A DNA stretch of 64,000 nucleotides from the NCBI GenBank assembly GCA_964016885.1, contig OZ024744.1, forward strand, positions 124,806,001-124,870,000, read 5' to 3'. Source of the DNA: Eledone cirrhosa. Lineage: Eukaryota. The position numbers were made by a program, and so were the translations under genes. The notes beneath the pieces are model-generated. The model was given only the letters and a program-made list of their open reading frames with translations. It made no database searches and was not told where the DNA came from. The first letter of the stretch is position 1. Each line of letters begins with the position of its first letter. This document shows positions 3,872 through 45,125 of this stretch, piece after piece.

Positions 3872-3915
<44 letters not shown>

Positions 3916-4701: not shown

Positions 4702-5009
4702 TAAAAGTAGCTTATTATTTTGTGAGCTCTTGCTACTTATTGCTCTTGTGCATCAAGAACATACACAGCTTACATTTTGTTGCTAATCTCACTGAGATCC
4801 AACTACATCTCTTGTTTATCCATAGTTTGGAATTTCTACCTACTCCTTTCCTTTAGAATGATCAAGGCCATTTTCTTGTGGGGATCTAGGCCCTGTTTTC
4901 CTTTCTATTTTGCCAAGTTATCTTACATCACTTTCATTCTAGACCATGCTTCCAGGTTTGGAATTTCTCCTCTAATTTTACCACAGATTAAGTGACAAGG
5001 GTTCAATCA

Positions 5010-8530: not shown

Positions 8531-8613
8531 GGTCCATGGCTTGGCCTGCTAACCGACGCTATACCCAAGTCGGTCGCCATGCTTTCCAGCATAGAGTTAC
8601 GTCTCTTTATGGT

Positions 8614-8712
8614 CTGAGTTCAAATCACGCCGAGGTTAACTTTGCCTTTCATCCTTACGGGGTCGATAAAATAAAGCACCAGTAATGTACTGGGGTCGAT
8701 TTAATCGACTTT
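8614..8712 (+). mobile_element. tRNA-derived SINE fragment
   Basis: CTGAGTTCAAATCACGCCGAGGTTAACTTTGCCTTTCATCCTTACGGGGTCGATAAAATAAAGCACCAG; same family as 4321-4392. Confidence 0.65.
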
Positions 8713-8761
8713 CCCCTCCTCTGCCAAATGACACACACATGCATGGTTCGGGGGAACCTAC

Positions 8762-8801
<40 letters not shown>

Positions 8802-9680
8802 GTAGGTCACTGGTTGAGTCGGTATTAACCACAGTAACTAAGGTACTCAATACATATTAGATATAGGTGTCTTTCTAATTGCTGGCCTTGTTCATAAGGT
8901 ATACACAAGTATGATGTGTGTCTGTTTAACTGTACGTGTGAAAACATCGCGAAATTGCGCCTTTTAATATTTGAATATAAACAGTTAAAAAATAATTATT
9001 TTAGTAATTTTTAAATATCGATAATGTGTATATAAATATTAGAAATCAATTTAATTAGTTCAGTAACATTACTCGGAGTTAAGATAAACCTTCATTTGAA
9101 GAAATTCGAGATTTGACCAAATAAATAGATTATGTGATCAATAAAAAAAATATGTATACGCGCTTGAACGACGGGTTGCAGACAGTCAGGCATACAGACA
9201 CATATTTTAAAGCGTGCGACGTTAAAAGTCTTACTCTCTCTCTTTTTAGATAGATAGACTTAATTAAAGCAGTTTCACTCTCTCTATATTTCATCAGCTC
9301 CCTCTCTCTTAAATTGAAAGATTCATTAAGGCTGAAATAATCTAAACAGTAACATCATGTTTCGCCAGCTCTAGCTTGCGTCCAGAGATATACACACACA
9401 TATATATATATTTTTTTTGTTATCGAGTTGAGCTTTGCCAAGCATAGAATTCCAAATTTGACCATCTCCACTGAAAATGTTCGTGAAATAGTCTTTAAGA
9501 AGCAATTTAATTTTTTCCAACTGAAACTGTAAGTATTTTAAAATTTATTTCAACATGGTCTTAAAAGATTGTTGGCTTTTTTTAAATTCATAACTATTTA
9601 CTATGAAATATAAATTATTAAATCCAATTTATTTGATAACCATGATTTGATTTTATAATTACCTGAATCACGTTAACATG

Positions 9681-16289: not shown

Positions 16290-16712
16290 TAATTATTATT
16301 ATTATTATTGTTGTTATTCCTTGAATCTCAGTCATTGATGTTGGTTAACTGGAAAGTCCGTTGGAATGAATATCAAGCCACTACCTGCAGCCTCAGATAT
16401 TCAGGACGTATCGGAGGGTTCTTGCTGTTCCAAGCAAGCATGCCTTTTGAAGCGTTCCAAAAAGCGTGAAGGGGCCGATTTTCTTTAACCATCCCTGGAA
16501 ACTTTTGGAGATGGACAAAAAACTGGAACACAATAGACCTGACCTGGTGGTTGTGGACAAAGAAAAAAGATCGTGTCTGATTGTGGATGTGGCCTGCCCG
16601 TTCAACACGAGAGTGCAAGAGAAGGAGAGGGAGAAAATTAACCGATACCAGGACCTAAAGTGGGAGGTGAAAAGGATTTGGAACTGCCATGAAGTCAAAG
16701 TGATCCCGATTG
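16290..16712 (-). mobile_element. R4/Dong-like RLE non-LTR retrotransposon 3' fragment with inverted 5' part, inserted in (TAA)n
   Basis: Plus strand 16513-16711 encodes DKKLEHNRPDLVVVDK..CLIVDVACP..EKINRYQDL..KVIPI (RLE domain). Minus strand 16393-16512 encodes ISKSFQGWLKKIG..LQKACLLGTARTLRYVLNI*, then a 3'UTR and (AAT)n tail. Flanked on both sides by (ATT)n. Confidence 0.8.
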
Positions 16713-17314: not shown

Positions 17315-18190
17315 GGCCCTTACCCTAACCCCAACCTCTTTGGTTTTCGTTTTCTCGACGGCTAGCCGCATTTCGTGATCCGCCTTTCGATTGCGCTTCC
17401 GTCGCGGCAAAAGAATTGCCTTTCCAGACCGCCGTCGCCCGACCGGACCCATGATAGAAGACGTTCGTTACCGTTGGAGCAACGCAAATTACTCCTCGGT
17501 TGACGCCAAAAACGAACGCCTTCCCGCCTCGCGCCGCCTTCTCCTCGCCGACCCTCGGCCTCGACGATTAGCCACTTTCCGTCACAGCAGTAGATACGCG
17601 TCCGTCGTAATAGCCGTCATTTTAACGCAGGAGAAACGCCTAATTGCCCTGCACCGCGTTTGACGGCGATCTACGACGGCGACGATGCGCGCACTCTTCC
17701 TTGCTGCGACGAAGGTTTCGGCTTTTCGTCGTGGACCCGGTCAGGTCATGCCGCTGACCTCGCGTTACGGCGACGCGAGAAGACGTTCGTTACCGCTGGA
17801 GCAACGCAAATTACTCCTCGGTTGACGCCAAAAACGAACGCCTCGCGCCGCCGCTTCCTCCTCGGCCTCGACGATTAGCCGCTTTCCGTCACAGCAGTAG
17901 ATACGCGTCCATCGTAATAGCCGTCATTTTAACGCAGGAGAAACGCCTTGACGACGATATACGATGGGTCGACGACGCGCGCACTCTTTCTGCTGCGACG
18001 AAGGTTTTGGCTTTTCGTTGTGGACCCGGTCGGGTCATGCCTCTGACCTCGCGTTGCGTCGCCACCGCCGCGGCGGGCTTGGGTTTAGCCGTAGCTACCC
18101 TCGTTTTGCCAACGGCGACGCGAGAAGACGTTCGTTACCGCTGGAGCAACGCAAATTACTCTTCGGATGAGGCCAAAAACGAACGCTGAA
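17315..18190 (+). repeat. Diverged upstream paralogs of the 169-bp spacer repeat and ETS-like module
   Basis: GAAGACGTTCGTTACCGCTGGAGCAACGCAAATTACTCCTCGG at ~17457, ~17778 and ~18124; CCGTCACAGCAGTAG...GTAATAGCCGTCATTTTAA and GGACCCGGTCAGGTCATGCC are shared with 25310-25480. Confidence 0.85.
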
Positions 18191-21360: not shown

Positions 21361-22015
21361 TAATAGTAATAATAATAATAGTAATAGTAATAATACAGCC
21401 AATTTTCCACGCAATACTTTTAGTTAGCACCCCGAACGCATAATTGGGAATATAATCACTTATTTCCTAATGTTTGTTGAGTGAGTTGGGAAAAAAAACT
21501 TGGGAAATATATTTTCAGGGTCTCAAAATCTTAAAGAGAAAAAAAAGTCCTGTGGAAGGTAGCAAAACAATTAGGAAGAAAATGGTTTGAAGTTGGTTGG
21601 TGAGTATAAGATTACAGTATCTTGTTGATTTCTATAAAGTTTACTTTTAACTGAATTGGTAAAAATGGATAAATTAGAAGACACAATATAATAACTAATA
21701 TTGTCTTCTAAAACAGGGAATAAAAATATGTTGGTGTATTGGGGGGGGGGGGGGGGTAAACATGTGAGTTAATGGGAATGTTTTTGTTTGTTTTTATTGA
21801 AACATATTCAATCTACAGATAGGTTGTTATAGTTATTTAGTCTCGGGTCTGCCATTATCTGCAGATTTATAATTGAGGGGTGTTCCAGGTGTGACCACCC
21901 TACATTATTCCTAGAGATTGTTACTCCTTCATTCTTCAGTCATCTTGGTCTTCTTATGAGATGGTGGTGTAGTCTTATTTATTGTTAAGGTTATGGTCTT
22001 CCTTTGTCCACACTC

Positions 22016-22057
<42 letters not shown>

Positions 22058-22189
22058 AAAGGCTTCCTTCTCTGGAAAAAGATGATTTAATATTCACAAC
22101 CATCTGTCTAATTGTTTTCTGATGAGAATAAAGTTAATCTTGCTTGTATGTCTACCTGATCAAATGACTGGCTGATATCTTGAAGTCAT

Positions 22190-24218: not shown

Positions 24219-24306
24219 ACCCTAACCCTAAACCTAACCCCAACTCCAACTCTGACCCTAAACCTAACCCCAACCCCAACCCTAACCCTAACCCTAACCC
24301 TAACCC
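24219..24306. repeat. Degenerate telomere-like (CCCTAA)n tract fused to the spacer repeats
   Basis: CCCTAA/CCCCAA/CCTAAA hexamers ending in perfect CCCTAA copies. Confidence 0.85.
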
Positions 24307-24308
24307 AC

Positions 24309-25229
24309 GATAGAAGACGTTCGTTACCGCTGGAGCAACGCAAATTACTCCTCGGTTGACGCCAAAAACGAACGCCTTCTCGACGGCTAGCCGCATTTCG
24401 TGATCCGCCTTTCGATTGCGCTTCCGTCGCGGAAAAAGAATTGCCTTTATAGGCCGCCGCCGCCCGACCGGACCCACGATAGAAGACGTTCGTTACCGCT
24501 GGAGCAACGCAAATTACTCCTCGGTTGACGCCAAAAACGAACGCCTTCTCGACGGCTAGCCGCATTTCGTGATCCGCCTTTCGATTGCGCTTCCGTCGCG
24601 GAAAAAGAATTGCCTTTATAGGCCGCCGCCGCCGCCCGACCGGACCCACGATAGAAGACGTTCGTTACCGCTGGAGCAACGCAAATTACTCCTCGGTTGA
24701 CGCCAAAAACGAACGCCTTCTCGACGGCTAGCCGCATTTCGTGATCCGCCTTTCGATTGCGCTTCCGTCGCGGAAAAAGAATTGCCTTTATAGGCCGCCG
24801 CCGCCCGACCGGACCCACGATAGAAGACGTTCGTTACCGCTGGAGCAACGCAAATTACTCCTCGGTTGACGCCAAAAACGAACGCCTTCTCGACGGCTAG
24901 CCGCATTTCGTGATCCGCCTTTCGATTGCGCTTCCGTCGCGGAAAAAGAATTGCCTTTATAGGCCGCCGCCGCCCGACCGGACCCACGATAGAAGACGTT
25001 CGTTACCGCTGGAGCAACGCAAATTACTCCTCGGTTGACGCCAAAAACGAACGCCTTCTCGACGGCTAGCCGCATTTCGTGATCCGCCTTTCGATTGCGC
25101 TTCCGTCGCGGAAAAAGAATTGCCTTTATAGGCCGCCGCCGCCGCCCGACCGGACCCACGATAGAAGACGTTCGTTACCGCTGGAGCAACGCAAATTACT
25201 CCTCGGTTGACGCCAAAAACGAACGCCTT
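24309..25229 (+). promoter_or_regulatory. rDNA IGS-type tandem repeats (169/172 bp, 5 full plus 1 partial); candidate Pol I spacer promoters or enhancers
   Basis: Starts at 24309, 24478, 24650, 24819, 24988, 25160. Each full unit contains CTTTATAGG(CCG)n, reminiscent of TATAGG Pol I start motifs. The array lies ~360 bp upstream of the 18S start. The repeat is certain; the promoter role is inferred. Confidence 0.6.
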
Positions 25230-25587
25230 CCGGTTCGGGCGACGTAAAAGTCTGTAGCCTTTTCGCCGATCCTCGACGATTATCCGCCTTCCGAACAACC
25301 GCCTTTCCGCCGTCACAGCAGTAGGTACTCGTCCGTCGTAATAGCCGTCATTTTAATGCAGGAGAAACGCCTAAATGCACTGCGATTGACGACGATCTAC
25401 GACGCGCTTACTCTTCCTTGCTGCGACGAAGGTTTCGTTCGGCTTTTCGTCGTGGACCCGGTCAGGTCATGCCGCTGATCTCGCGTTGCGTCGTTACCGC
25501 TGGAGCAACGCAAATTACTCCTCGTTTAACGCCAACATCGAACGCGCTTCGGTTCTCGGTCGTCGTTGTTTTGTTTCGTGCGGAAGA
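25230..25587 (+). other. 5'ETS-like segment
   Basis: CpG-rich segment between the spacer repeats and the 18S 5' end; assigned by position. Confidence 0.55.
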
Positions 25588-25771
25588 TACCTGGGTGATC
25601 CTGCCAGTAGTCATATGCTTGTCTCAAAGCTTAAGCCATGCAAGTGGAAGTTCATGCCGTAAACGAAAATGGTGAAACCGCGAATGGCTCAGGAACCGGA
25701 TCTAATCCTCGGGACCGTATTCCTCACCGCGAGGAGAGGATAACTGTGGCAATTCTAGAGCTAATACATGC
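25588..25771 (+). pseudogene. 18S rRNA: 18S rRNA 5' fragment (first ~185 nt only)
   Basis: TACCTGGGTGATCCTGCCAGTAGTCATATGCTTGTCTCAAAG.TTAAGCCATGCA...GTGAAACCGCGAATGGCTCA...GGATAACTGTGGCAATTCTAGAGCTAATACATGC matches the universal eukaryotic SSU 5' end; colinearity stops after it. Confidence 0.93.
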
Positions 25772-25779
25772 AATTGAGA

Positions 25780-28700
25780 TCGGAGAGGGAGCGATCCGTC
25801 TGCTTGATTCCGATAACGAACGAGACATTCGTATCCGAAAGAACGTTTGTCTGGAAACTGGTGCAGTCAGTGAGTCGAAAAAAAAATATCTCGGTGGTAG
25901 TAGCAAATATTCGAACGAGACATTCGTATGCGAAAGAACGTTTGTCGGTGGTAGTAGCAAATATTCGAACGAGACATTCGTATGCGAAAGAACGTTTGTC
26001 TGGAAGTGGCGATCCATGCCCGGTGGATAGTTGGTTCCGGGTTTTACTATGATTGTTGCAAAACAGAAACTTAAAGGGATTGACAGAATTTGCGATTCCG
26101 GAGAGAGGGCGATCCGTCTGCTTGATTCCGATAACGAACGAGACATTCGTATCCGAAAGAACGTTTGTCTGGAAACTGGTGAGTCAGTGAGTCGAAAAAA
26201 AAATATCTCGGTGGTAGTAGCAAATATTCGAACGAGACATTCGTATGCGAAAGAACGTTTGTCGGTGGTAGTAGCAAATATTCGAACGAGACATTCGTAT
26301 GCGAAAGAACGTTTGTCTGGAAGTGGCGATCCATGCCCGGTGGATAGTTGGTTCCGGGTTTTACTATGATTGTTGCAAAACAGAAACTTAAAGGGATTGA
26401 CAGAATTTGCGATTCCGGAGAGGGGGCGATCCGTCTGCTTGATTCCGATAACGAACGAGACATTCGTATCCGAAAGAACGTTTGTCTGGAAACTGGTGAG
26501 TCGAAAAAAAAATATCTCGGTGGTAGTAGCAAATATTCGTATGCGAAAGAAAAGATCTCGGTGGTAGTAGCAAATATTCGAACGAGACATTCGTAGGCGA
26601 AAGAAAAATATCTCGGTGGTAGTAGCAAATATTCGAACGAGACATTCGTATGCGAAAGAACGTTTGTCGGTGGTAGTAGCAAATATTCGAACGAGACATT
26701 CGTATGCGAAAGAACGTTTGTCTGGAAGTGGCGATCCATGCCCGGTGGATAGTTGGTTCCGGGTTTTACTATGATTGTTGCAAAACAGAAACTTAAAGGG
26801 ATTGACAGAATTTGCGATTCCGGAGAGAGGGCGATCCGTCTGCTTGATTCCGATAACGAACGAGACATTCGTATCCGAAAGAACGTTTGTCTGGAAACTG
26901 GTGAGTCAGTGAGTCGAAAAAAAAATATCTCGGTGGTAGTAGCAAATATTCGAACGAAACATTCGTATGCGAAAGGACGTTTGTCGGTGGTAGTAGCAAA
27001 TATTCGAACGAGACATTCGTATGCGAAAGAACGTTTGTCTGGAAGTGGCGATCCATGCTCGGTGGATAGTTGGTTCCGGGTTTTACTATGATTGTTGCAA
27101 AACAGAAACTTAAAGGGATTGACAGAATTTGCGATTCCGGAGAGGGGGCGATCCGTCTGCTTGATTCCGATAACGAACGAGACATTCGTATCCGAAAGAA
27201 CGTTTGTCTGGAAACTGGTGAGTCAGTGAGTCGAAAAAAAAAATATCTCGGTGGTAGTAGCAAATATTCGAACGAGACATTCGTATGCGAAAGAACGTTT
27301 GTCGGTGGTAGTAGCAAATATTCGAACGAGACATTCGTATGCGAAAGAACGTTTGTCTGGAAGTGGCGATCCATGCTCGGTGGATAGTTGGTTCCGGGTT
27401 TTACTATGATTGTTGCAAAACAGAAACTTAAAGGGATTGACAGAATTTGCGATTCCGGAGAGGGGGCGATCCGTCTGCTTGATTCCGATAACGAACGAGA
27501 CATTCGTATCCGAAAGAACGTTTGTCTGGAAACTTGTGAGTCAGTGAGTAGAAAAAAAAATATCTCGGTGGTAGTAGCAAATATTCGAACGAGACATTCG
27601 TATGCGAAAGAACGTTTGTCGGTGGTAGTAGCAAATATTCGAACGAGACATTCGTATGCGAAAGAACGTTTGTCTGGAAGTGGCGATCCATGCCCGGTGG
27701 ATAGTTGGTTCCGGGTTTTACTATGATTGTTGCAAAACAGAAACTTAAAGGGATTGACAGAATTTGCGATTCCGGAGAGGGGGCGATCCGTCTGCTTGAT
27801 TCCGATAACGAACGAGACATTCGTATCCGAAAGAACGTTTGTCTGGAAACTGGTGAGTCGAAAAAAAAATATCTCGGTGGTAGTAGCAAATATTCGAACG
27901 AGACATTCGTAGGCGAAAGAAAAATATCTCGGTGGTAGTAGCAAATATTCGAACGAGACATTCGTATGCGAAAGAACGTTTGTCGGTGGTAGTAGCAAAT
28001 ATTCGAACGAGACATTCGTATGCGAAAGAACGTTTGTCGGTGGTAGTAGCAAATATTCGAACGAGACATTCGTATGCGAAAGAACGTTTGTCTGGAAGTG
28101 GCGATCCATGCCCGGTGGATAGTTGGTTCCGGGTTTTACTATGATTGTTGCAAAACAGAAACTTAAAGGGATTGACAGAATTTGCGATTACGGAGAGGGG
28201 GCGATCCGTCTGCTTGATTCCGATAACGAACGAGACATTCGTATCCGAAAGAACGTTTGTCTGGAAACTGGTGAGTCAGTGAGTCGAAAAAAAAAATATC
28301 TCGGTGGTAGTAGCAAATATTCGAACGAGACATTCGTATGCGAAAGAACGTTTGTCGGTGGTAGTAGCAAATATTCGAACGAGACATTCGTATGCGAAAG
28401 AACGTTTGTCGGTGGTAGTAGCAAATATTCGAACGAGACATTCGTAGGCGAAAGAAAAATATCTCGGTGGTAGTAGCAAATATTCGAACGAGACATTCGT
28501 ATTCGAAAGAACGTTTGTCTGGAAGTTGCGATCCATGCCCGGTGGATAGTTGGTTCCGGGTTTTACTATGATTGTTGCAAAACAGAAACTTAAAGGGATT
28601 GACAGAATTTGCGATTCCGGAGAGGGGGCGATCCGTCTGCTTGATTCCGATAACGAACGAGACATTCGTATCCGAAAGAACGTTTGTCTGGAAACTGGTG

Positions 28701-31700
28701 AGTCAGTGAGTCGAAAAAAAAAATATCTCGGTGGTAGTAGCAAATATTCGAACGAGACATTCGTATGCGAAAGAACGTTTGTCGGTGGTAGTAGCAAATA
28801 TTCGAACGAGACATTCGTATGCGAAAGAACGTTTGTCGGTGGTAGTAGCAAATATTCGAACGAGACATTCGTATGCGAAAGAACGTTTGTCTGGAAGTGG
28901 CGATCCATGCCCGGTGGATAGTTGGTTCCGGGTTTTACTATGATTGTTGCAAAACAGAAACTTAAAGGGATTGACAGAATTTGCGATTCCGGAGAGAGGG
29001 CGATCCGTCTGCTTGATTCCGATAACGAACGAGACATTCGTATCCGAAAGAACGTTTGTCTGGAAACTGGTGAGTCAGTGAGTCGAAAAAAAAATATCTC
29101 GGTGGTAGTAGCAAATATTCGAACGAGACATTCGTATGCGAAAGAACGTTTGTCGGTGGTAGTAGCAAATATTCGAACGAGACATTCGTATGCGAAAGAA
29201 CGTTTGTCTGGAAGTGGCGATCCATGCCCGGTGGATAGTTGGTTCCGGGTTTTACTATGATTGTTGCAAAACAGAAACTTAAAGGGATTGACAGAATTTG
29301 CGATTCCGGAGAGGGGGCGATCCGTCTGCTTGATTCCGATAACGAACGAGACATTCGTATCCGAAAGAACGTTTGTCTGGAAACTGGTGAGTCGAAAAAA
29401 AAATATCTCGGTGGTAGTAGCAAATATTCGTATGCGAAAGAAAAGATCTCGGTGGTAGTAGCAAATATTCGAACGAGACATTCGTAGGCGAAAGAAAAAT
29501 ATCTCGGTGGTAGTAGCAAATATTCGAACGAGACATTCGTATGCGAAAGAACGTTTGTCGGTGGTAGTAGCAAATATTCGAACGAGACATTCGTATGCGA
29601 AAGAACGTTTGTCTGGAAGTGGCGATCCATGCCCGGTGGATAGTTGGTTCCGGGTTTTACTATGATTGTTGCAAAACAGAAACTTAAAGGGATTGACAGA
29701 ATTTGCGATTCCGGAGAGAGGGCGATCCGTCTGCTTGATTCCGATAACGAACGAGACATTCGTATCCGAAAGAACGTTTGTCTGGAAACTGGTGAGTCAG
29801 TGAGTCGAAAAAAAAATATCTCGGTGGTAGTAGCAAATATTCGTATGCGAAAGAAAAGATCTCGGTGGTAGTAGCAAATATTCGAACGAGACATTCGTAG
29901 GCGAAAGAAAAATATCTCGGTGGTAGTAGCAAATATTCGAACGAGACATTCGTATTCGAAAGAACGTTTGTCTGGAAGTTGCGATCCATGCCCTGTGGAT
30001 AGTTGGTTCCGGGTTTTACTATGATTGTTGCAAAACAGAAACTTAAAGGGATTGACAGAATTTGCGATTCCGGAGAGGGGGCAATCCGTCTGCTTGATTC
30101 CGATAACGAACGAGACATTCGTATCCGAAAGAACGTTTGTCTGGAAACTGGTGAGTCAGTGAGTCGAAAAAAAAAATATCTCGGTGGTAGTAGCAAATAT
30201 TCGAACGAGACATTCGTATGCGAAAGAACGTGTGTCGGTGGTAGTAGCAAATATTCGAACGAGACATTCGTATGCGAAAGAACGTTTGTCTGGAAGTGGC
30301 GATCCATGCTCGGTGGATAGTTGGTTCCGGGTTTTACTATGATTGTTGCAAAACAGAAACTTAGAGGGATTGACAGAATTTGCGATTCCGGAGAGGGGGC
30401 GATCCGTCTGCTTGATTCCGATAACGAACGAGACATTCGTATCCGAAAGAACGTTTGTCTGGAAACTGGTGAGTCAGTGAGTCGAAAAAAAAATATCTCG
30501 GTGGTAGTAGCAAATATTCGAACGAGACATTCGTATGCGAAAGAACGTTTGTCGGTGGTAGTAGCAAATATTCGAACGAGACATTCGTATGCGAAAGAAC
30601 GTTTGTCGGTGGTAGTAGCAAATATTCGAACGAGACATTCGTATGCGAAAGAACGTTTGTCTGGAAACTGGTGAGTCAGTGAGTCGAAAAAAAAATATCT
30701 CGGTGGTAGTAGCAAATATTCGAACGAGACATTCGTATGCGAAAGAAAAATATCTCGGTGGTAGTAGCAAATATTCGAACGAGACATTCGTATGCGAAAG
30801 AACGTTTGTCTGGAAGTGGCGATCCATGCCCGGTGGATAGTTGGTTCCGGGTTTTACTATGATTGTTGCAAAACAGAAACTTAAAGGGATTGACAGAATT
30901 TGCGATTCCGGAGAGGGGGCGATCCGTCTGCTTGATTCCGATAACGAACGAGACATTCGTATCCGAAAGAACGTTTGTCTGGAAACTGGTGAGTCAGTGA
31001 GTCGAAAAAAAAATATCTCGGTGGTAGTAGCAAATATTCGAACGAGTCATTCGTATGCGAAAGAACGTTTGTCGGTGGTAGTAGCAAATATTCGAACGAG
31101 ACATTCGTATGCGAAAGAACGTTTGTCTGGAAGTGGCGATCCATGCCCGGTGGATAGTTGGTTCCGGGTTTTACTATGATTGTTGCAAAACAGAAACTTA
31201 AAGGGATTGACAGAATTTGCGATTCCGGAGAGGGGGCGATCCGTCTGCTTGATTCCGATAACGAACGAGACATTCGTATCCGAAAGAACGTTTGTCTGGA
31301 AACTGGTGAGTCAGTGAGTCGAAAAAAAAATATCTCGGTGGTAGTAGCAAATATTCGAACGAGACATTCGTATGCGAAAGAACGTTTGTCGGTGGTAGTA
31401 GCAAATATTCGAACGAGACATTCGTATGCGAAAGAACGTTTGTCTGGAAGTGGCGATCCATGCCCGGTGGATAGTTGGTTCCGGGTTTTACTATGATTGT
31501 TGCAAAACAGAAACTTAAAGGGATTGACAGAATTTGCGATTACGGAGAGGGGGCGATCCGTCTGCTTGATTCCGATAACGAACGAGACATTCGTATCCGA
31601 AAGAACGTTTGTCTGGAAACTGGTGAGTCAGTGAGTCGAAAAAAAAATATCTCGGTGGTAGTAGCAAATATTCGTATGCGAAAGAAAAGATCTCGGTGGT

Positions 31701-32732
31701 AGTAGCAAATATTCGAACGAGACATTCGTAGGCGAAAGAAAAATATCTCGGTGGTAGTAGCAAATATTCGAACGAGACATTCGTATGCGAAAGAACGTTT
31801 GTCGGTGGTAGTAGCAAATATTCGAACGAGACATTCGTATGCGAAAGAACGTTTGTCGGTGGTAGTAGCAAATATTCGAACGAGACATTCGTATTCGAAA
31901 GAACGTTTGTCTGGAAGTGGCGATCCATGCCCGGTGGATAGTTGGTTCCGGGCTTTACTATGATTGTTGCAAAACAGAAACTTAAAGGGATTGACAGAAT
32001 TTGCGATTCCGGAGAGGGGGCGATCCGTCTGCTTGATTTCGATAACGAACGAGACATTCGTATCCGAAAGAACGTTTGTCTGGAAACTGGTGAGTCAGTG
32101 AGTCGAAAAAAAAAATATCTCGGTGGTAGTAGCAAATATTCGAACGAGACATTCGTATGCGAAAGAACGTTTGTCGGTGGTAGTAGCAAATATTCGAACG
32201 AGACATTCGTATGCGAAAGAACGTTTGTCGGTGGTAGTAGCAAATATTCGAACGAGACATTCGTATGCGAAAGAACGTTTGTCTGGAAGTGGCGATCCAT
32301 GCCCGGTGGATAGTTGGTTCCGGGTTTTACTATGATTGTTGCAAAACAGAAACTTAAAGGGATTGACAGAATTTGCGATTCCGGAGAGAGGGCGATCCGT
32401 CTGCTTGATTCCGATAACGAACGAGACATTCGTATCCGAAAGAACGTTTGTCTGGAAACTGGTGAGTCAGTGAGTCGAAAAAAAAATATCTCGGTGGTAG
32501 TAGCAAATATTCGTATGCGAAAGAAAAGATCTCGGTGGTAGTAGCAAATATTCGAACGAGACATTCGTATGCGAAAGAAAAATATCTCGGTGGTAGTAGC
32601 AAATATTCGAACGAGACATTCGTATTCGAAAGAACGTTTGTCTGGAAGTTGCGATCCATGCCCGGTGGATAGTTGGTTCCGGGCTTTACTATGATTGTTG
32701 CAAAACAGAAACTTAAAGGAATTGACAGAATT
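25780..32732 (+). repeat. rRNA-mosaic satellite: 19 monomers of 317-520 bp with variable 54-bp subrepeats, made of 18S and 28S fragments
   Basis: TTGGTTCCGGG at 26031, 26348, 26753, 27070, 27388, 27705, 28123, 28550, 28922, 29239, 29644, 30003, 30321, 30841, 31158, 31475, 31942, 32314, 32673. 18S-derived modules: GATTCCGGAGAGGG, GCGAT..GTCTG..T.ATTCCGATAACGAACGAGAC, GTTGCAAA...GAAACTTAAAGG.ATTGAC. 28S-derived module: ATCTCGGTGGTAGTAGCAAATATTC.AACGAGA. Confidence 0.9.
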
Positions 32733-32759
32733 TTCGAATCGACATCAACTCGGCTACGG

Positions 32760-33120
32760 CTATCCCGTCGAGTACGAGAGTATCGCGGGATCAGAGCAAC
32801 GGTTTGCTAGGCTGCCTCTGAGCGATAACGGCTGAACGCCTCCTCTAAGCCGGAACCCTAGCCGGACCCGAGTTGTTTTTCGACAAGCGTCTCGACCTTC
32901 TTAAGGCCCATGCCTTAGTTTGGCGATTGCCGTCCGTTCGCCGACGGCGGCAGCGTCAGCGGAAATGCCATTCTGTGACGACTACGACGATTCGTCGTCG
33001 TCGTCGTCCATTCGATTTCCTGAAAGAGATAGAGACTAAAGTGATCAAATTGTTCGGAGTTACGTGCTTAGTAGAGCAGCTACCACACTGCAATCTATTG
33101 AGAGTTTTCTGACGAACGAT
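32760..33120 (+). pseudogene. 28S rRNA: Degenerate, internally deleted 28S rRNA 3'-terminal fragment
   Basis: Sarcin-ricin-loop-like AGTACGAGAG (32771-32780); GGCTGAACGCCTC(CTC)TAAGCCGGAACCC, compare GACTGAACGCCTCTAAGTCAGAATCC; AGTAGAGCAGCTACCACACTGCAATCTATTGAGAGT, compare the 28S end AGCAGAGCAGCT...CTGCGATCTATTGAAAGT. Confidence 0.8.
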
Positions 33121-34538
33121 ACAATCCGCCCACGTGGCGCCAGAAAGGGAGAAGAAAAGAAAAGTTAGACGCCGCCGATCGATCGGTTCGTTGTTTTACG
33201 TGTACACAGCTTGTGTGTGTGTCTGTATGTGATACAAGCCGCCTATCCGTCTTCCAAGTAAGTTTTGTGTGTAGACTGCGGAAAGAAATCCAATCCGCCG
33301 TCTAGGCGGTTCTGCCGCCGACCCATACTTTTGCGAGTCGCTCCCGGGAAAGACAGGCGGCAAGACGGCGTGTATACACGACGCCTTCCGTCTTCCGCCT
33401 CGAACCCGGCAAACGTTCCTTTATTCGTCCACGCCTTCCCGCTTCGATCGCGAGAAAGTAATCAATCTGTTTTGTGTGTGTGTCTGTGTGTGATACAAAT
33501 TTGTTTTCTTAATTTGATAACCATGAATTGTTTCAACACCGGCCCTTTTAAGGGCCACTTATATTTTCAATAATCAGTTTAAATGGGTTGCACCGTAGCC
33601 ACTTGGTAATACACTGCAAATCTCCCGTCAATCTATGAAGGTTTTGTAGTAGATTAGATCAAAACACAATCAGCAAGACAGTAATGGAATGAATAATATA
33701 AACATTTGTTTATAATTAAAGCCTTAAGATGTCCCTCCCTCCCTCCCTTCCTTCCTTCCTTCCTTCCTTCCTTCCTTCCTTACGATATACACTTTAATAA
33801 CATTGAAACTTATTTAATAAGTTTAAATTTTAAACACTTTTTATTCAGACGTACCGCGATAAGTAACTAGATATGTTCTAACGAATAATCCGCGATGTGG
33901 CGAGGATTACCGCGATAGGAAATTAGATACGTTCCAAAGAAATATCCGCGAAAAGTGAACCGCGATATAGCGGGTTCACCAGCCAGTGTATTACTGGTAC
34001 TTTATTTTATCGACCCCCATAAGGATGAAAGGCAAAGTTAACTGTGCAATAACAAAGGGAGATAACCTCGTCTTTTTTTTTTTACGGAGTTATTTCCCTT
34101 TAAATTTTATCTATTACTTATGATGATACAATTTAATCAGTTCTTAGCTGTCGAGACACTGCATCCTTTAAAACCTCCATGGAACAAGCTACCTGCAACA
34201 GTTGTTAGCTGTCGAGACACTGCATCTTTTAAAACCTCCATGGAACAAACTACCTGCATCAGTTGTTAGGGTCTGAGTTCAAATCACGCCGAGGAGGTTA
34301 ACTTTGCCTTTCATCCTTACGGGGTCGGTCGGAAAACGAACCATTCCCGGTTCGCTTTCGAAGCGGGTTTCCGAAAACAGCGCTTCTCTCGACCGGGCCC
34401 GTCGTCCGCTCGGCGGTGGTTTTCATCGTCCCAGGCACGGCTAACAGGCGGAGACGGGACAAACGCGCGTGTTCCTTTTTTTATCAGCCGCAGCGCCGTT
34501 CGTATATATGCTTAGGTTGTTTTTTTTTTAAATATCCT

Positions 34539-34720
34539 AAGTTAAGTTGGGGCTAAGTTAAGTTGGGGCTAAGTTAAGTTGAGGTTAAGTTGAGTTGGGG
34601 TTAAGTTAAGTGGGGGTTAAGTTAAGCTGGGGTTAAGTTAAGTTGAGGTTAAGTTAAGTTGGGGTTAAGTCAAGTTGGGGTTAAGTTAAGTTGGGGTTAA
34701 GTTAGGTTGCGGTTAAGTTA
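34539..34720. repeat. G-rich telomere-like minisatellite (GGGGTTAAGTTAAGTT)n
   Basis: About 11 copies of a 15-16-bp unit directly abutting the foldback satellite. Confidence 0.85.
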
Positions 34721-37700
34721 CATTCGCCGCCGGACTTCAGCTTCCTCATTTAGCATGGGCAGTCTTTCTTGAAAATCACACCACACACAGCAAATGTGTG
34801 TCCGCACATGTACCAGTAATTACAGATCGATTCCGGTGAAAATTCACTGAAAACGGGCCATCCGGCCCTGTGCGTCGATCGTGGGCCGGCCGGATGTTGA
34901 CGGATCGATGTGTAATTAGAAGTACATGTGCGGACACTCATTGGCTGTGCGTGGTATGCATTTCAGCAAGATATCTCCGTAACATCAAGAGTTATGGCTG
35001 TGGAGGCACACCTAGTCAAACGTAAACAAGGTCTGGAGCGTTTACGCTTCGCGATTTTGTTTACGTTTGACTAGGTGTGCCTCCACAGCCACAACTCTTG
35101 ATGTTACGGAGATATCTTGCTGAAATGCATACCGCGCACAGCCAATGAGTGTCCGCACATGTACTTCTAATTACACATCGATCCGTCAACATCCGGCCGG
35201 CCCACGATCGATGCACAGGGCCGGATGGCCCGTTTTCAGTGAATTTTCACCGGAATCGATCTGTAATTACTGGTACATGTGCGGAGACACATTTGCTGTG
35301 TGTGGTGTGATTTTCAAGAAAAACTGCCCATGCTAAATGAGGAAGCTGAAGTCCGCCGGCGAATGGTGTGCTTCGAAGAAAACTAATTCGAAAATGACCG
35401 TTTGCAGGCGGAGTAACCTTTTCGATCGTGGGCCAGCCGCCCGTGGTGGGATCCATCTGTAATTACTGGTACATGTGCGGACATACATTTGCTGTGTGTG
35501 GTGTGATTTTCAAGAAGAACTGCCCATGCTAAATGAGGAAGCTGAAGTCCGCCGGCGAATGGTGTGCTTCGAAGAAAACTAATTCGAAAATGACCGTTTG
35601 CAGGCGGGGTAACCTTTTCGATCGTGGGCCAGCCGCCCGTGGTGGGATCCATCTGTAATTACTGGTACATGTGCGGACACACATTTGCTGTGTGTGGTGT
35701 GATTTTCGAGAAAGACTGCCCATGCTAAATGAGGAAGCTGAAGTCCGCCGGCGAATGGTGTGCTTCGAAGAAAACTAATTCGAAAATGACTATTTGCCGG
35801 CGGAATCACCTTTTCGGTCCTGGTCCGGCCGGATCTTGCCGGATCGATCGGAAATTTGTGGACCATGTTCGGAAGGCCATTGTGCATGTGTGGTGAAAAA
35901 AATTTGTGTCGAAATCTTCTCGGAAAATAACGGATCGCCGGCGGAGATTGCCATTTCGATCGTGGGCCGGCCGGATCTTGTCGGATCGATTCGGACATAT
36001 GTGCATCGTGTTCGCAAGGCCCTTGTCTATGTGTGGTGTGATTTTCATAAAGAAATTCCGAAAAACCCAGTTTTAAATCTGATTTCGCCAAAGAATTTTG
36101 GCTATCAGATCGGGTTGAAAGGTATGGTTTCAGGTCGATCTGAAAGTCTAAAATGGAATTCACTCGGTTAGCTAACTTTTGATATATCGGAGATATCTTT
36201 CTGAAAATCACACCACACACTCCCAATGAGTGTCTGCACATGTACCAGTAATTACAGATGGATCCCACCACGGGCGGCCGGCCCACGATCGAAAAGGTTA
36301 CTCCGAAGCACACCATTCGCCGGCGGAATTCATTTAGCATGGGCAGTTTTTCTCGAAAATCACACCACACACAGCCAATGAGTGTCCGCACATGTACCAG
36401 TAATTACAGATGGATCCCACCACGGGCGGCTGGCCCACGATCGAAAAGGTTACTCCGCCTGCAAACGGTCATTTTCGAATTCGTTTTCTTCGAAGCACAC
36501 GATTCGCCGGCGGACTTCAGCTGCCTCATTTAGCATGGGCAGTTTTTCTCGAAAATCACACCACACACAGCAAATGTGTGTCCGCACATGTACCAGTAAT
36601 TACAGATCGATTCCGGTGAAAATTCACTGAAAACGGGCCATTCGGCCCTGTGCGTCGATCGTGGGCCGGCCGGATGTTGACGGATCGATGTGTAATTAGA
36701 AGTACATGTGCGGACACTCATTGGCTGTGCGTGGTATGCATTTCAGCAAGATATCTCCGTAACATCAAGAGTTATGGCTGTGGAGGCACACCTAGTCAAA
36801 CGTAAACAAGCTCTGGAGCGTATACGCTTCGCGATTTTGTTTACGTTTGACTAGGTGTGCCTCCACAGCCACAACTCTTGATGTTACGGAGATATCTTGC
36901 TGAAATGCATACCACGCACAGCCAATGAGTGTCCGCACATGTACTTCTAATTACACATCGATCCGTCAACATCCGGCCGGCCCACGATCGACGCACAGCG
37001 CCGGATGGCCCGTTTTCAGTGAATTTTCACCGGAATCGATCTGTAATTACTGGTACATGTGCGGACACACATTTGCTGTGTGTGGTGTGATTTTCACGAA
37101 AAACTGCCCATGCTAAATGAGGAAGCTGAAGTCCGCCGGCGAATGGTGTGCTTCGAAGAAAACTAATTCGAAAATGACCGTTTGCAGGCGGAGTAACCTT
37201 TTCGATCGTGGGCCAGCCGCCCGTGGTGGGATCCATCTGTAATTACTGGTACATGTGCGGACATACATTTGCTGTGTGTGGTGTGATTTTCAAGAAGAAC
37301 TGCCCATGCTAAATGAGGAAGCTGAAGTCCGCCGACGAATGGTGTGCTTCGAAGAAAACTAATTCGAAAATGACCGTTTGCAGGCGGGGTAACCTTTTCG
37401 ATAGTGGGCCAGCCGCCCGTGGTGGGATCCATCTGTAATTACTGGTACATGTGCGGACACACATTTGCTGTGTGTGGTGTGATTTTCGAGAAAGACTGCC
37501 CATGCTAAATGAGGAAGCTGAAGTCCGCCGGCGAATGGTGTGCTTCGAAGAAAACTAATTCGAAAATGACTATTTGCCGGCGGAATCACCTTTTCGGTCC
37601 TGGTCCGGCCGGATCTTGCCGGATCGATCGGAAATTTGTGGACCATGTTCGGAAGGCCATTGTGCATGTGTGGTGAAAAAAATTTGTGTCGAAATCTTCT

Positions 37701-40700
37701 CGGAAAATAACGGATCGCCGGCGGAGATTGCCATTTCGATCGTGGGCCGGCCGGATCTTGTCGGATCGATTCGGACATATGTGCATCGTGTTCGCAAGGC
37801 CCTTGTCTATGTGTGGTGTGATTTTCATAAAGAAATTCCGAAAAACCCAGTTTTAAATCTGATTTCGCCAAAGAATTTTGGCTATCAGATCGGGTTGAAA
37901 GGTATGGTTTCAGGTCGATCTGAAAGTCTAAAATGGAATTCACTCGGTTAGCTAACTATTGATATATCGGAGATATCTTTCTGAAAATCACACCACACAC
38001 TCCCAATGAGTGTCTGCACATGTACCAGTAATTACAGATGGATCCCACCACGGGCGGCCGGCCCACGATCGAAAAGGTTACTCCGAAGCACACCATTCGC
38101 CGGCGGAATTCATTTAGCATGGGCAGTTTTTCTCGAAAATCACACCACACACAGCCAATGAGTGTCCGCACATGTACCAGTAATTACAGATGGATCCCAC
38201 CACGGGCGGCTGGCCCACGATCGAAAAGGTTACTCCGCCTGCAAACGGTCATTTTCGAATTCGTTTTCTTCGAAGCACACGATTCGCCGGCGGACTTCAG
38301 CTGCCTCATTTAGCATGGGCAGTTTTTCTCGAAAATCACACCACACACAGCAAATGTGTGTCCGCACATGTACCAGTAATTACAGATCGATTCCGGTGAA
38401 AATTCACTGAAAACGGGCCATTCGGCCCTGTGCGTCGATCGTGGGCCGGCCGGATGTTGACGGATCGATGTGTAATTAGAAGTACATGTGCGGACACTCA
38501 TTGGCTGTGCGTGGTATGCATTTCAGCAAGATATCTCCGTAACATCAAGAGTTATGGCTGTGGAGGCACACCTAGTCAAACGTAAACAAGCTCTGGAGCG
38601 TATACGCTTCGCGATTTTGTTTACGTTTGACTAGGTCTGCCTCCACAGCCACAACTCTTGATGTTACGGAGATATCTTGCTGAAATGCATACCACGCACA
38701 GCCAATGAGTGTCCGCACATGTACTTCTAATTACACATCGATCCGTCAACATCCGGCCGGCCCACGATCGACGCACAGGGCCGGATGGCCCGTTTTCAGT
38801 GAATTTTCACCGGAATCGATCTGTAATTACTGGTACATGTGCGGACACACATTTGCTGTGTGTGGTGTGATTTTCACGAAAAACTGCCCATGCTAAATGA
38901 GGAAGCTGAAGTCCGCCGGCGAATGGTGTGCTTCGAAGAAAACTAATTCGAAAATGACCGTTTGCAGGCGGAGTAACCTTTTCGATCGTGGGCCAGCCGC
39001 CCGTGGTGGGATCCATCTGTAATTACTGGTACATGTGCGGACATACATTTGCTGTGTGTGGTGTGATTTTCAAGAAGAACTGCCCATGCTAAATGAGGAA
39101 GCTGAAGTCCGCCGACGAATGGTGTGCTTCGAAGAAAACTAATTCGAAAATGACCGTTTGCAGGCGGGGTAACCTTTTCGATAGTGGGCCAGCCGCCCGT
39201 GGTGGGATCCATCTGTAATTACTGGTACATGTGCGGACACACATTTGCTGTGTGTGGTGTGATTTTCGAGAAAGACTGCCCATGCTAAATGAGGAAGCTG
39301 AAGTCCGCCGGCGAATGGTGTGCTTCGAAGAAAACTAATTCGAAAATGACTATTTGCCGGCGGAATCACCTTTTCGGTCCTGGTCCGGCCGGATCTTGCC
39401 GGATCGATCGGAAATTTGTGGACCATGTTCGGAAGGCCATTGTGCATGTGTGGTGAAAAAAATTTGTGTCGAAATCTTCTCGGAAAATAACGGATCGCCG
39501 GCGGAGATTGCCATTTCGATCGTGGGCCGGCCGGATCTTGTCGGATCGATTCGGACATATGTGCATCGTGTTCGCAAGGCCCTTGTCTATGTGTGGTGTG
39601 ATTTTCATAAAGAAATTCCGAAAAACCCAGTTTTAAATCTGATTTCGCCAAAGAATTTTGGCTATCAGATCGGGTTGAAAGGTATGGTTTCAGGTCGATC
39701 TGAAAGTCTAAAATGGAATTCACTCGGTTAGCTAACTATTGATATATCGGAGATATCTTTCTGAAAATCACACCACACACTCCCAATGAGTGTCTGCACA
39801 TGTACCAGTAATTACAGATGGATCCCACCACGGGCGGCCGGCCCACGATCGAAAAGGTTACTCCGAAGCACACCATTCGCCGGCGGAATTCATTTAGCAT
39901 GGGCAGTTTTTCTCGAAAATCACACCACACACAGCCAATGAGTGTCCGCACATGTACCAGTAATTACAGATGGATCCCACCACGGGCGGCTGGCCCACGA
40001 TCGAAAAGGTTACTCCGCCTGCAAACGGTCATTTTCGAATTCGTTTTCTTCGAAGCACACGATTCGCCGGCGGACTTCAGCTGCCTCATTTAGCATGGGC
40101 AGTTTTTCTCGAAAATCACACCACACACAGCAAATGTGTGTCCGCACATGTACCAGTAATTACAGATCGATTCCGGTGAAAATTCACTGAAAACGGGCCA
40201 TTCGGCCCTGTGCGTCGATCGTGGGCCGGCCGGATGTTGACGGATCGATGTGTAATTAGAAGTACATGTGCGGACACTCATTGGCTGTGCGTGGTATGCA
40301 TTTCAGCAAGATATCTCCGTAACATCAAGAGTTATGGCTGTGGAGGCACACCTAGTCAAACGTAAACAAGCTCTGGAGCGTATACGCTTCGCGATTTTGT
40401 TTACGTTTGACTAGGTCTGCCTCCACAGCCACAACTCTTGATGTTACGGAGATATCTTGCTGAAATGCATACCACGCACAGCCAATGAGTGTCCGCACAT
40501 GTACTTCTAATTACACATCGATCCGTCAACATCCGGCCGGCCCACGATCGACGCACAGGGCCGGATGGCCCGTTTTCAGTGAATTTTCACCGGAATCGAT
40601 CTGTAATTACTGGTACATGTGCGGACACACATTTGCTGTGTGTGGTGTGATTTTCACGAAAAACTGCCCATGCTAAATGAGGAAGCTGAAGTCCGCCGGC

Positions 40701-43700
40701 GAATGGTGTGCTTCGAAGAAAACTAATTCGAAAATGACCGTTTGCAGGCGGAGTAACCTTTTCGATCGTGGGCCAGCCGCCCGTGGTGGGATCCATCTGT
40801 AATTACTGGTACATGTGCGGACACACATTTGCTGTGTGTGGTGTGATTTTCGAGAAAGACTGCCCATGCTAAATGAGGAAGCTGAAGTCCGCCGGCGAAT
40901 GGTGTGCTTCGAAGAAAACTAATTCGAAAATGACTATTTGCCGGCGGAATCACCTTTTCGGTCCTGGTCCGGCCGGATCTTGCCGGATCGATCGGAAATT
41001 TGTGGACCATGTTCGGAAGGCCATTGTGCATGTGTGGTGAAAAAAATTTGTGTCGAAATCTTCTCGGAAAATAACGGATCGCCGGCGGAGATTGCCATTT
41101 CGATCGTGGGCCGGCCGGATCTTGTCGGATCGATTCGGACATATGTGCATCGTGTTCGCAAGGCCCTTGTCTATGTGTGGTGTGATTTTCATAAAGAAAT
41201 TCCGAAAAACCCAGTTTTAAATCTGATTTCGCCAAAGAATTTTGGCTATCAGATCGGGTTGAAAGGTATGGTTTCAGGTCGATCTGAAAGTCTAAAATGG
41301 AATTCACTCGGTTACCTAACTATTGATATATCGGAGATATCTTTCTGAAAATCACACCACACACTCCCAATGAGTGTCTGCACATGTACCAGTAATTACA
41401 GATGGATCCCACCACGGGCGGCCGGCCCACGATCGAAAAGGTTACTCCGAAGCACACCATTCGCCGGCGGAATTCATTTAGCATGGGCAGTTTTTCTCGA
41501 AAATCACACCACACACAGCCAATGAGTGTCCGCACATGTACCAGTAATTACAGATGGATCCCACCACGGGCGGCTGGCCCACGATCGAAAAGGTTACTCC
41601 GCCTGCAAACGGTCATTTTCGAATTCGTTTTCTTCGAAGCACACGATTCGCCGGCGGACTTCAGCTGCCTCATTTAGCATGGGCAGTTTTTCTCGAAAAT
41701 CACACCACACACAGCAAATGTGTGTCCGCACATGTACCAGTAATTACAGATCGATTCCGGTGAAAATTCACTGAAAACGGGCCATTCGGCCCTGTGCGTC
41801 GATCGTGGGCCGGCCGGATGTTGACGGATCGATGTGTAATTAGAAGTACATGTGCGGACACTCATTGGCTGTGCGTGGTATGCATTTCAGCAAGATATCT
41901 CCGTAACATCAAGAGTTATGGCTGTGGAGGCACACCTAGTCAAACGTAAACAAGCTCTGGAGCGTATACGCTTCGCGATTTTGTTTACGTTTGACTAGGT
42001 GTGCCTCCACAGCCACAACTCTTGATGTTACGGAGATATCTTGCTGAAATGCATACCACGCACAGCCAATGAGTGTCCGCACATGTACTTCTAATTACAC
42101 ATCGATCCGTCAACATCCGGCCGGCCCACGATCGACGCACAGGGCCGGATGGCCCGTTTTCAGTGAATTTTCACCGGAATCGATCTGTAATTACTGGTAC
42201 ATGTGCGGACACACATTTGCTGTGTGTGGTGTGATTTTCACGAAAAACTGCCCATGCTAAATGAGGAAGCTGAAGTCCGCCGGCGAATGGTGTGCTTCGA
42301 AGAAAACTAATTCGAAAATGACCGTTTGCAGGCGGAGTAACCTTTTCGATCGTGGGCCAGCCGCCCGTGGTGGGATACATCTGTAATTACTGGTACATGT
42401 GCGGACACACATTTGCTGTGTGTGGTGTGATTTTCGAGAAAGACTGCCCATGCTAAATGAGGAAGCTGAAGTCCGCCGGCGAATGGTGTGCTTCGAAGAA
42501 AACTAATTCGAAAATGACTATTTGCCGGCGGAATCACCTTTTCGGTCCTGGTCCGGCCGGATCTTGCCGGATCGATCGGAAATTTGTGGACCATGTTCGG
42601 AAGGCCATTGTGCATGTGTGATGAAAAAAATTTGTGTCGAAATCTTCTCGGAAAATAACGGATCGCCGGCGGAGATTGCCATTTCGATCGTGGGCCGGCC
42701 GGATCTTGTCGGATCGATTCGGACATATGTGCATCGTGTTCGCAAGGCCCTTGTCTATGTGTGGTGTGATTTTCATAAAGAAATTCCGAAAAACCCAGTT
42801 TTAAATCTGATTTCGCCAAAGAATTTTGGGTATCAGATCGGGTTGAAAGGTATGGTTTCAGGTCGATCTGAAAGTCTAAAATGGAATTCACTCGGTTAGC
42901 TAACTTTTGATATATCGGAGATATCTTTCTGAAAATCACACCACACACTCCCAATGAGTGTCTGCACATGTACCAGTAATTACAGATGGATCCCACCACG
43001 GGCGGCCGGCCCACGATCGAAAAGGTTACTCCGAAGCACACCATTCGCCGGCGGAATTCATTTAGCATGGGCAGTTTTTCTCGAAAATCACACCACACAC
43101 AGCCAATGAGTGTCCGCACATGTACCAGTAATTACAGATGGATCCCACCACGGGCGGCTGGCCCACGATCGAAAAGGTTACTCCGCCTGCAAACGGTCAT
43201 TTTCGAATTAGTTTTCTTCGAAGCACACCATTCGCCGGCGGACTTCAGCTTCCTCATTTAGCATGGGCAGTTTTTCTCGAAAATCACACCACACACAGCA
43301 AATGTGTGTCCGCACATGTACCAGTAATTACAGATCGATTCCGGTGAAAATTCACTGAAAACGGGCCATTCTGCCCTGTGCGTCGATCGTGGGCCGGCCG
43401 GATGTTGACGGATCGATGTGTAATTAGAAGTACATGTGCGGACACTCATTGGCTGTGCGTGGTATGCATTTCAGCAAGATATCTCCGTAACATCAAGAGT
43501 TATGGCTGTGGAGGCACACCTAGTCAAACGTAAACAAGCTCTGGAGCGTATACGCTTCGCGATTTTGTTTACGTTTGACTAGGTGTGCCTCCACAGCCAC
43601 AACTCTTGATGTTACGGAGATATCTTGCTGAAATGCATACCACGCACAGCCAATGAGTGTCCGCACATGTACTTCTAATTACACATCGATCCGTCAACAT

Positions 43701-45125
43701 CCGGCCGGCCCACGATCGACGCACAGGGCCGGATGGCCCGTTTTCAGTGAATTTTCACCGGAATCGATCTGTAATTACTGGTACATGTGCGGACACACAT
43801 TTGCTGTGTGTGGTGTGATTTTCACGAAAAACTGCCCATGCTAAATGAGGAAGCTGAAGTCCGCCGGCGAATGGTGTGCTTCGAAGAAAACTAATTCGAA
43901 AATGACCGTTTGCAGGCGGAGTAACCTTTTCGATCGTGGGCCAGCCGCCCGTGGTGGGATACATCTGTAATTACTGGTACATGTGCGGACACACATTTGC
44001 TGTGTGTGGTGTGATTTTCGAGAAAGACTGCCCATGCTAAATGAGGAAGCTGAAGTCCGCCGGCGAATGGTGTGCTTCGAAGAAAACTAATTCGAAAATG
44101 ACTATTTGCCGGCGGAATCACCTTTTCGGTCCTGGTCCGGCCGGATCTTGCCGGATCGATCGGAAATTTGTGGACCATGTTCGGAAGGCCATTGTGCATG
44201 TGTGGTGAAAAAAATTTGTGTCGAAATCTTCTCGGAAAATAACGGATCGCCGGCGGAGATTGCCATTTCGATCGTGGGCCGGCCGGATCTTGTCGGATCG
44301 ATTCGGACATATGTGCATCGTGTTCGCAAGGCCCTTGTCTATGTGTGGTGTGATTTTCATAAAGAAATTCCGAAAAACCCAGTTTTAAATCTGATTTCGC
44401 CAAAGAATTTTGGCTATCAGATCGGGTTGAAAGGTATGGTTTCAGGTCGATCTGAAAGTCTAAAATGGAATTCACTCGGTTAGCTAACTATTGATATATC
44501 GGAGATATCTTTCTGAAAATCACACCACACACTCCCAATGAGTGTCTGCACATGTACCAGTAATTACAGATGGATCCCACCACGGGCGGCTGGCCCACGA
44601 TCGAAAAGGTTACTCCGCCTGCAAACGGTCATTTTCGAATTAGTTTTCTTCGAAGCACACCATTCGCCGGCGGACTTCAGCTTCCTCATTTAGCATGGGC
44701 AGTTTTTCTTGAAAATCACACCACACACAGCAAATGTGTGTCCGCACATGTACCAGTAATTACAGATCGATTCCGGTGAAAATTCACTGAAAACGGGCCA
44801 TTCGGCCCTGTGCGTCGATCGTGGGCCGGCCGGATGTTGACGGATCGATGTGTAATTAGAAGTACATGTGCGGACACTCATTGGCTGTGCGTGGTATGCA
44901 TTTCACTAAGATATCTCCGTAACATCAAGAGTTATGGCTGTGGAGGCACACCTAGTCAAACGTAAACAAGGTCTGGAGCGTTTACGCTTCGCGATTTTGT
45001 TTACGTTTGACTAGGTGTGCCTCCACAGCGACAACTCTTGATGTTACGGAGATATCTTGCTGAAATTCATACCACGCACAGCCAATGAGTGTCCGCACAT
45101 GTACCTGTAATTACACATCGATCCG
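34721..45125. repeat. Complete foldback satellite array (~10.4 kb), 7 palindrome axes
   Basis: Axes start at 35037, 36817, 38597, 40377, 41961, 43545 and 44977, giving spacings 1780, 1780, 1780, 1584, 1584, 1432. The steps equal one 196-bp or one 152-bp subrepeat. Confidence 0.95.

Follow-up and report, generated by a model that had tools for sequence, protein, structure and literature searches.

The window analysed here, a 64-kb stretch of a 3.0-Gb assembly (C28:124806001-124870000), carries a hollow ribosomal DNA (rDNA) unit that is probably a promoterless and most likely inert rDNA pseudogene, the interior of which would have collapsed by microhomology-guided repair before two rounds of amplification. 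In rDNA order, the unit consists of 5′ETS-derived repeats, nucleotides 1-191 of 18S, 19 monomers and the last ~460 nt of 28S; 5.8S is absent, and 18S and 28S are reduced to head, scraps and tail. Mapping to the intact C12 unit bore out the preliminary description in that the parts it had named lie on a single strand and in normal rDNA order, and the junction that it had reported to recur 38,178 bp further on was found at 25776 and 63954. The features of the window are as follows.

14439-52650, no strand: one macrosatellite period (~38.2 kb) bearing the relic; over 11.4 kb it matches the following period at 99.2% identity.
17351-18186, plus strand: a second, separate block of triplicated 5′ETS sequence, promoterless, in the same macro-unit.
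24219-24306, plus strand: degenerate (ACCCTA)n telomere-like tract (14.7 copies, 85% matches), the 5′ boundary of the element.
24303-25230, plus strand: 169-bp 5′ETS subrepeat, 5.5 copies in tandem, matching C12 local 7084-7470 at 90-96%.
25231-25587, plus strand: rest of the 5′ETS with internal deletions, about 6% substitutions relative to the intact unit.
25588-25778, plus strand: 18S rRNA nt 1-191, 94.5% identical to the intact unit (about 4% diverged).
25779-32741, plus strand: mosaic satellite, 19 monomers of 317-520 bp (monomer starts 25791-32392), donors mapped against the intact unit.
32742-33162, plus strand: 28S 3′ end (5881-6342; 28S part to ~33130) and a few 3′ETS bases.
33213-33506, plus strand: fragments of 3′ETS and IGS, corresponding to C12 local 21683-22159 and to a GT-rich subrepeat.
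33507-33580, plus strand: half of a dispersed palindromic repeat with a histone-type 3′ stem-loop.
34333-34538, plus strand: isolated 28S fragment (691-895), heading a 16-bp repeat and a 1780-bp satellite.
62481-64000, plus strand: the following copy, comprising ETS repeats, the 18S head and the first junction.

Intact 45S units of the same genome, present on C2, C4, C12 and C25, served as the yardstick, and the C12 unit, in local coordinates with 18S starting at 9074, was the comparison reference; 11 of 2,279 candidate SSU matches were scored, so that these locations are a minimum. The intact unit comprises an 18S of 2,876 nt, a 5.8S and a 28S of 6,342 nt. Its 18S start and 28S end lie 10.5 kb apart, and the 7.5 kb measured here is therefore not the ordinary distance that it had been taken for. 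The length of the rRNAs, together with the repeats present, points to a cephalopod. Intact-type 18S heads number 20 genome-wide. Intact-type rDNA appears in scattered clusters of one to three units on many chromosomes (C1-C25), which may represent collapsed arrays or mobile rDNA; on C4, the intact units lie ~40 kb apart and their spacers are repeat-rich.

Comparison with the intact unit showed that substitutions amount to 4.2% in the 18S head, which carries a T>G change at nt 8, to 6.2% in the ETS and to 8.6% in the 28S tail, with many deletions besides. The 5′ETS adjoining 18S has lost 835 bp (intact C12 local 8195-9029), and the 28S tail has deletions of 26, 33 and ~18 nt. The hollow unit has none of three attributes of a functional 45S unit, namely the likely Pol I promoter upstream of the 5′ETS, intact 18S, 5.8S and 28S, and homogenisation with active rDNA, the last being contradicted by 4-9% substitutions and the deletions.

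Each of the ~710-bp spacer repeats of intact units contains a conserved block with TATATAGGG at its end, and the final block lies ~2.2 kb before 18S. On C12, C4 and C25, where intact units were examined, no IGS repeat was without it. Because this layout is that of spacer and gene promoters and the motif has a counterpart in plants, the block is read as the likely Pol I start, on the strength of motif and position. It matches the TATA plus GGG start motif of plant rDNA (PMC6589552). A mussel study calls TATA plus GGGG a general feature, although the putative motif of its own species differs (PMC6730533). Even with as many as 10 substitutions allowed, the 37-nt TATATAGGG block finds no counterpart in the 64-kb window, and the promoter-like block does not occur in the hollow copy on C18. 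The gene-promoter form has 25 matches in the genome at up to one mismatch, none of which is on the contigs that carry hollow units (C28, C18 and unplaced). The 169-bp repeats correspond to sequence ~170-560 bp downstream of the last TATATAGGG block (~6907), and for this reason the repeats described as promoter or spacer are 5′ETS; the likely promoter, which had been thought to be retained, is missing. Of the ~710-bp IGS repeats that bear promoters, a single ~250-bp scrap remains, and the 3′ETS and IGS fragments stop short of the first spacer-promoter block (C12 local 22259). Since the likely promoter of the intact genes is missing, an inert repeat is favoured over a working decoy gene.

The telomere-like tract meets the first ETS-derived base (24303) through a common ACCC, and this joint is probably the site of promoter loss. 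The rDNA-derived stretch is flanked by this C-rich tract (24219-24306) on the left and by a G-rich degenerate tract (34538-34720) on the right. Their orientation is that of a capped linear fragment, which may be due to chance because similar tracts are common in the macro-unit.

Each 169-bp repeat reads TTTATAGG where the intact ETS has TTTACAGA or TTTTCAGA. The gained word resembles the likely Pol I start motif in 7 of 9 letters and, judged by this resemblance, is a possible new start site. We consider it distinctly unlikely that the unit is transcribed, either from TTTATAGG or by read-through, into a long RNA that would lure processing factors away with its tandem copies of conserved rRNA core motifs, as a decoy, or would give rise to small RNAs. 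The TATA-GG-like word, present in all five complete ETS repeats, argues for such transcription, and the absence of the promoter block argues against it; further evidence on both sides is given below.

Alignment to the intact 45S unit of the same genome resolved the monomer into a mosaic in which pieces of 18-58 nt derive from 18S, ITS1 and 28S, with donors at 18S 2042-2080, ITS1 289-307, 28S 2083-2121, 28S 1396-1413, 18S 1843-1900 and 18S 575-592, of which 28S 2083-2121 and the ITS1 piece form a 54-bp subrepeat present in two to five copies per monomer. Seven exact matches of at least 12 nt to the intact transcribed region were found, all in sense orientation, compared with 0.27 per base-shuffled monomer (200 shuffles). 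No donor was found for a ~40-nt AT-rich piece, and together with short linkers about 60-90 nt of the monomer are donorless. Microhomology was seen at three joints: GGAGC (5 nt) between 18S 592 and 2042, a word of 10 nt that occurs both in 18S 2071-2080 and in 28S 2107-2116, and TTCG (4 nt) between 28S and ITS1; the remaining joints overlap by 0-2 nt. The run 191, 575, 2042, ITS1, 28S 2083 is colinear, a pattern as from serial deletion, and the backward jumps in donor order would be explained by deletions that run into an adjacent unit, or else by template switching. At DNA breaks, short templated insertions are documented (PMC11724301).

The monomer could also have originated by a reverse transcriptase jumping between stable rRNA or pre-rRNA fragments, with the chimeric cDNA patching a deletion, an origin that we regard as unlikely and that would be compatible with inertness. 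The sense orientation of all seven exact matches, the leaning of the donors towards conserved cores and the scrambled donor order are consistent with it, but a head-to-tail DNA array likewise yields all-sense pieces, the flanks contain what is likely untranscribed spacer, and four successive joints are colinear deletions. A further hint, this one of DNA fold-back, is an inverted match of 11 nt to ITS1 309-319, located next to the ITS1 donor, albeit no longer than chance would give.

Eukaryotic rDNA from metagenomes, in which 15 of 80 loci were at least 6 kb long, was the standard for scoring how conserved the donors are, using 10 loci for 18S and ITS and 4 for 28S, the rest being dropped for low cover. 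The result showed that four of the six donors score at least 0.7, as does about 23% of the deleted span. The p value for the mean of the six pieces was 0.005; it was 0.018 once the piece that had served to retrieve the comparison loci was left out, and 0.046-0.085 when two unmapped pieces were scored as non-core, so that the lean towards conserved cores is borderline and partly ascertainment. This enrichment counts in favour of a transcribed decoy, but only as a borderline signal once the unmapped pieces are included, and the core motifs of the monomer themselves carry substitutions. Nor does the monomer have a special RNA fold (z 0.03; 51 of 100 shuffles as good), which also speaks against a decoy. 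The terminal monomer keeps an intact-rRNA letter that is lost in 17 of the 18 window monomers scored, as would be expected where unequal exchange spares array ends, an edge effect of neutral satellite turnover. As to protein coding, of 11 frames compared with Pfam, 10 matched nothing and the remaining one scored below the cutoff; the long antisense stop-free frames were rejected as genes, as they break where monomer length changes.

A genome-wide search revealed 59 exact head junctions and 61 exact tail junctions on eight contigs, with copy-specific interiors. Of the hollow heads, 43 are on C28 and 15 on unplaced contigs, with a single one on C18. The array on C28 (124.69-126.47 Mb, 1.78 Mb), in which the median head spacing is 37.8 kb, lies between two 200-N gaps, so that its placement and copy number are uncertain. 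The copy on C18 is cut inside the 28S tail and its flanks are gap-free. Although the bounding gaps would suit an assembly artefact, the exact junctions on eight contigs, the copy-specific interiors and the gap-free flanks on C18 argue strongly for a real structure.

Nearly all copies keep both the 18S head and the 28S tail, 58 of the 59 heads pairing with a tail. Their interiors measure 724-19,010 bp (median 5.8 kb), and because interior length varies in this way among paired copies, the 7.5-kb span in the window is due to chance. The retention of head and tail speaks for a transcribed decoy, the 26-fold length range against it. Among copies, substitutions amount to 0-0.1% in rDNA parts and non-rDNA flanks alike (6-15 copies per region, giving low power), suggesting that amplification or homogenisation was recent; that the rDNA parts are not the more uniform of the two is in keeping with inertness. 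Exact monomer words number 857 genome-wide, which fits the ~338 kb of summed interiors and implies that there is no large free-standing monomer satellite; among 100 of the 857 matches listed, none is on C1-C17. At one locus (C28:125594001-125604000), the 18S head and nearly all monomers have been lost, and the ETS repeats almost abut the last monomers.

Hollow and intact-type heads stand at 59 to 20 in the assembly, which is not a copy-number ratio because true rDNA arrays often collapse in assemblies; with that proviso, the excess counts towards a transcribed decoy. In one form of that idea, which we hold to be unlikely, a dead rDNA unit was re-used: with the new start motif in the ETS, some 60 loci, a number that may equal that of the intact genes, would make long RNAs with dozens of tandem copies of the most conserved core motifs, including the partner strand of the 18S central pseudoknot, and these would act as a sponge for U3, snoRNP or ribosome-assembly factors or as a source of rRNA-like small RNAs.

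Most of the 38-kb unit is unrelated repeat debris. The possibility that a former NOR was swept by a defective unit was judged unlikely, as its ~25-kb spacer has nothing but generic repeats in common with the spacers of intact units. Positions 34538-45125 are occupied by the 1780-bp satellite, which has ~1.1-kb internal inverted arms and 196-bp subrepeats, is headed by the 28S fragment and the 16-bp G-rich repeat, and also forms a long array on C18 (C18:6746545-6765000). The stem-loop at 33507-33580 has no histone gene upstream and was rejected as a 3′-processing signal because it is half of a dispersed palindrome, in which about 45 bp separate two inverted histone-type 3′ stem-loops, too short a distance to accommodate a histone gene; the motif has 129 exact matches, about 60 of them from the hollow array, and a cluster on C18 at 4.9-12.7 Mb. 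Sequence at 16400-16710, before an (ATT)n run, resembles by eye what we take to be the end of a restriction-endonuclease-type non-LTR retrotransposon; the frame tested there had no Pfam match.

Contigs of four of 24 listed public sequencing runs (X4, X5, X6 and X19, from four studies) were aligned to the shortest copy; the runs left out of the comparison include X1-X3 (possible source) and X7-X10 (share of X7-X10 0.20-0.32). None of the listed runs containing the sequence is recorded as RNA, which counts neither for nor against expression. The results showed that contigs in all four runs cover mosaic sequence with 0-1 differing letters and that X4 bridges the array to the tail, which makes an assembly artefact very unlikely; here the earlier view of a real structure was upheld. 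In X4 and X5, which derive from other organisms, mosaic pieces with 0-1 differences occur at depth 2-28 and look like low-depth carry-over, given their near-identity, their low depth and the fact that X4's own 28S continues differently. X6 contains the same pieces at greater depth, together with the intact spacer of this genome. No diverged orthologue was found in the contigs of X4, X5 or X6.

X19 is a small run whose kind is not on record; it is dominated by intact ETS, 18S and 28S and, from this content, appears RNA-like. It yielded a 289-nt contig that bridges several mosaic joints at a depth of 114, compared with 500-6,000 for intact rRNA and ETS. This contig favours a transcribed decoy, but it is a lead only, since DNA carry-over could also yield it with ~900 monomers per genome, and contigs, which give neither strand nor level, do not distinguish transcript from genomic carry-over. 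No X19 contig covers the hollow-specific tail, which X4 assembled at far lower monomer depth; this gap would oppose genomic carry-over, but holes in contigs prove nothing.

Returning to the inert pseudogene, we infer an order of steps from what was observed, namely the donor map, the missing promoter block, the decay, the copy number, the variable interior and the near-identity of the copies. First, a piece of rDNA would have broken within the 5′ETS and lost its promoter. Next, a ~320-bp mosaic of 18-58-nt scraps would have been left by deletions and by template switches, a part of which look as though they had jumped back to an adjacent unit of a head-to-tail array; in this mosaic, the 10-nt word common to 18S and 28S may have seeded the 54-bp subrepeat. 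Unequal exchange would have expanded the monomer and would still change monomer number. Finally, the whole ~38-kb block, transposon debris included, would recently have been amplified or homogenised to about 60 copies, any transcription being presumably read-through and not Pol I initiation. Counted against inertness are the X19 contig, the lean of the donors towards cores, the retention of both ends and the gained word; to these are added a start site placed by motif, the donorless 60-90 nt and the several joints of 0-2 nt. In sum, the preliminary interpretation stands as regards an amplified rDNA-derived family with an rRNA-mosaic interior, but not as regards a Pol I-transcribed ~8-kb decoy pre-rRNA, with which the absence of the likely Pol I promoter, the 835-bp deletion in the 5′ETS, the 26-fold length range and the decayed rRNA are at odds.

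Among known systems, the tomato IGS-homologous satellite arose from rDNA units, expanded by recombination and forms an array apart from functional rDNA (PMC2679016). The hollow-unit monomer is likewise rDNA-derived, tandem, apart from functional rDNA and variable in copy number. In tomato, however, an IGS subrepeat was amplified and coding sequence eliminated (PMC2679016), whereas the donors here are 18S, ITS1 and 28S, the one spacer-type (ETS) subrepeat being the 169-bp block; unlike the tomato array, moreover, the present one is framed by an 18S head and a 28S tail and nested in a 38-kb macrosatellite. Like the displaced rDNA pseudogenes of human (PMC5381670), the hollow unit is off-array, decayed and composed of transcribed and spacer parts; those are scattered and decaying, whereas the hollow unit was amplified anew, giving ~60 near-identical copies whose interior is a satellite. 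SINE28-type retroposons (PMC10946416) are also a repeat family with rRNA fragments, but they are dispersed, whereas the monomer is tandem and confined to hollow units among 100 of the 857 word matches listed. By analogy, the element would behave like an rDNA-derived satellite grown from a displaced pseudogene.

The term pseudo-NOR, which had been applied to a transcribed locus, has the opposite sense in PMC3923965, where it denotes a promoterless, non-transcribed synthetic array of UBF-binding enhancer elements. The hollow array shares with it only that it is megabase-sized and lacks rDNA promoters. That the array acts as DNA, as a natural pseudo-NOR-like or structural domain (nucleolar tethering, a sink for Pol I factors or a centromere-like block), seems improbable. 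A homogeneous promoterless array of this size would suit such a role, and synthetic pseudo-NORs, according to the same source, recruit the Pol I machinery without promoters and form a secondary constriction. However, the promoter-bearing ~710-bp IGS repeats, the nearest analogue of enhancer arrays, are almost absent, and the bulk of the unit is unrelated repeat debris.

A literature search, mostly without subscription papers, returned no description of the element, of a coding-mosaic rDNA satellite or of a natural class of rRNA-mimic decoys. If transcripts were confirmed, the element would be such a natural rRNA-mimic decoy. If inert, the repeat documents with unusual clarity how a satellite was born from a gene, the donors, the joints and both rounds of amplification being readable against an intact unit of its own genome. 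In practice it is a trap as well, as hollow copies would score in 18S-head probes, rRNA annotation and estimates of rDNA copy number.
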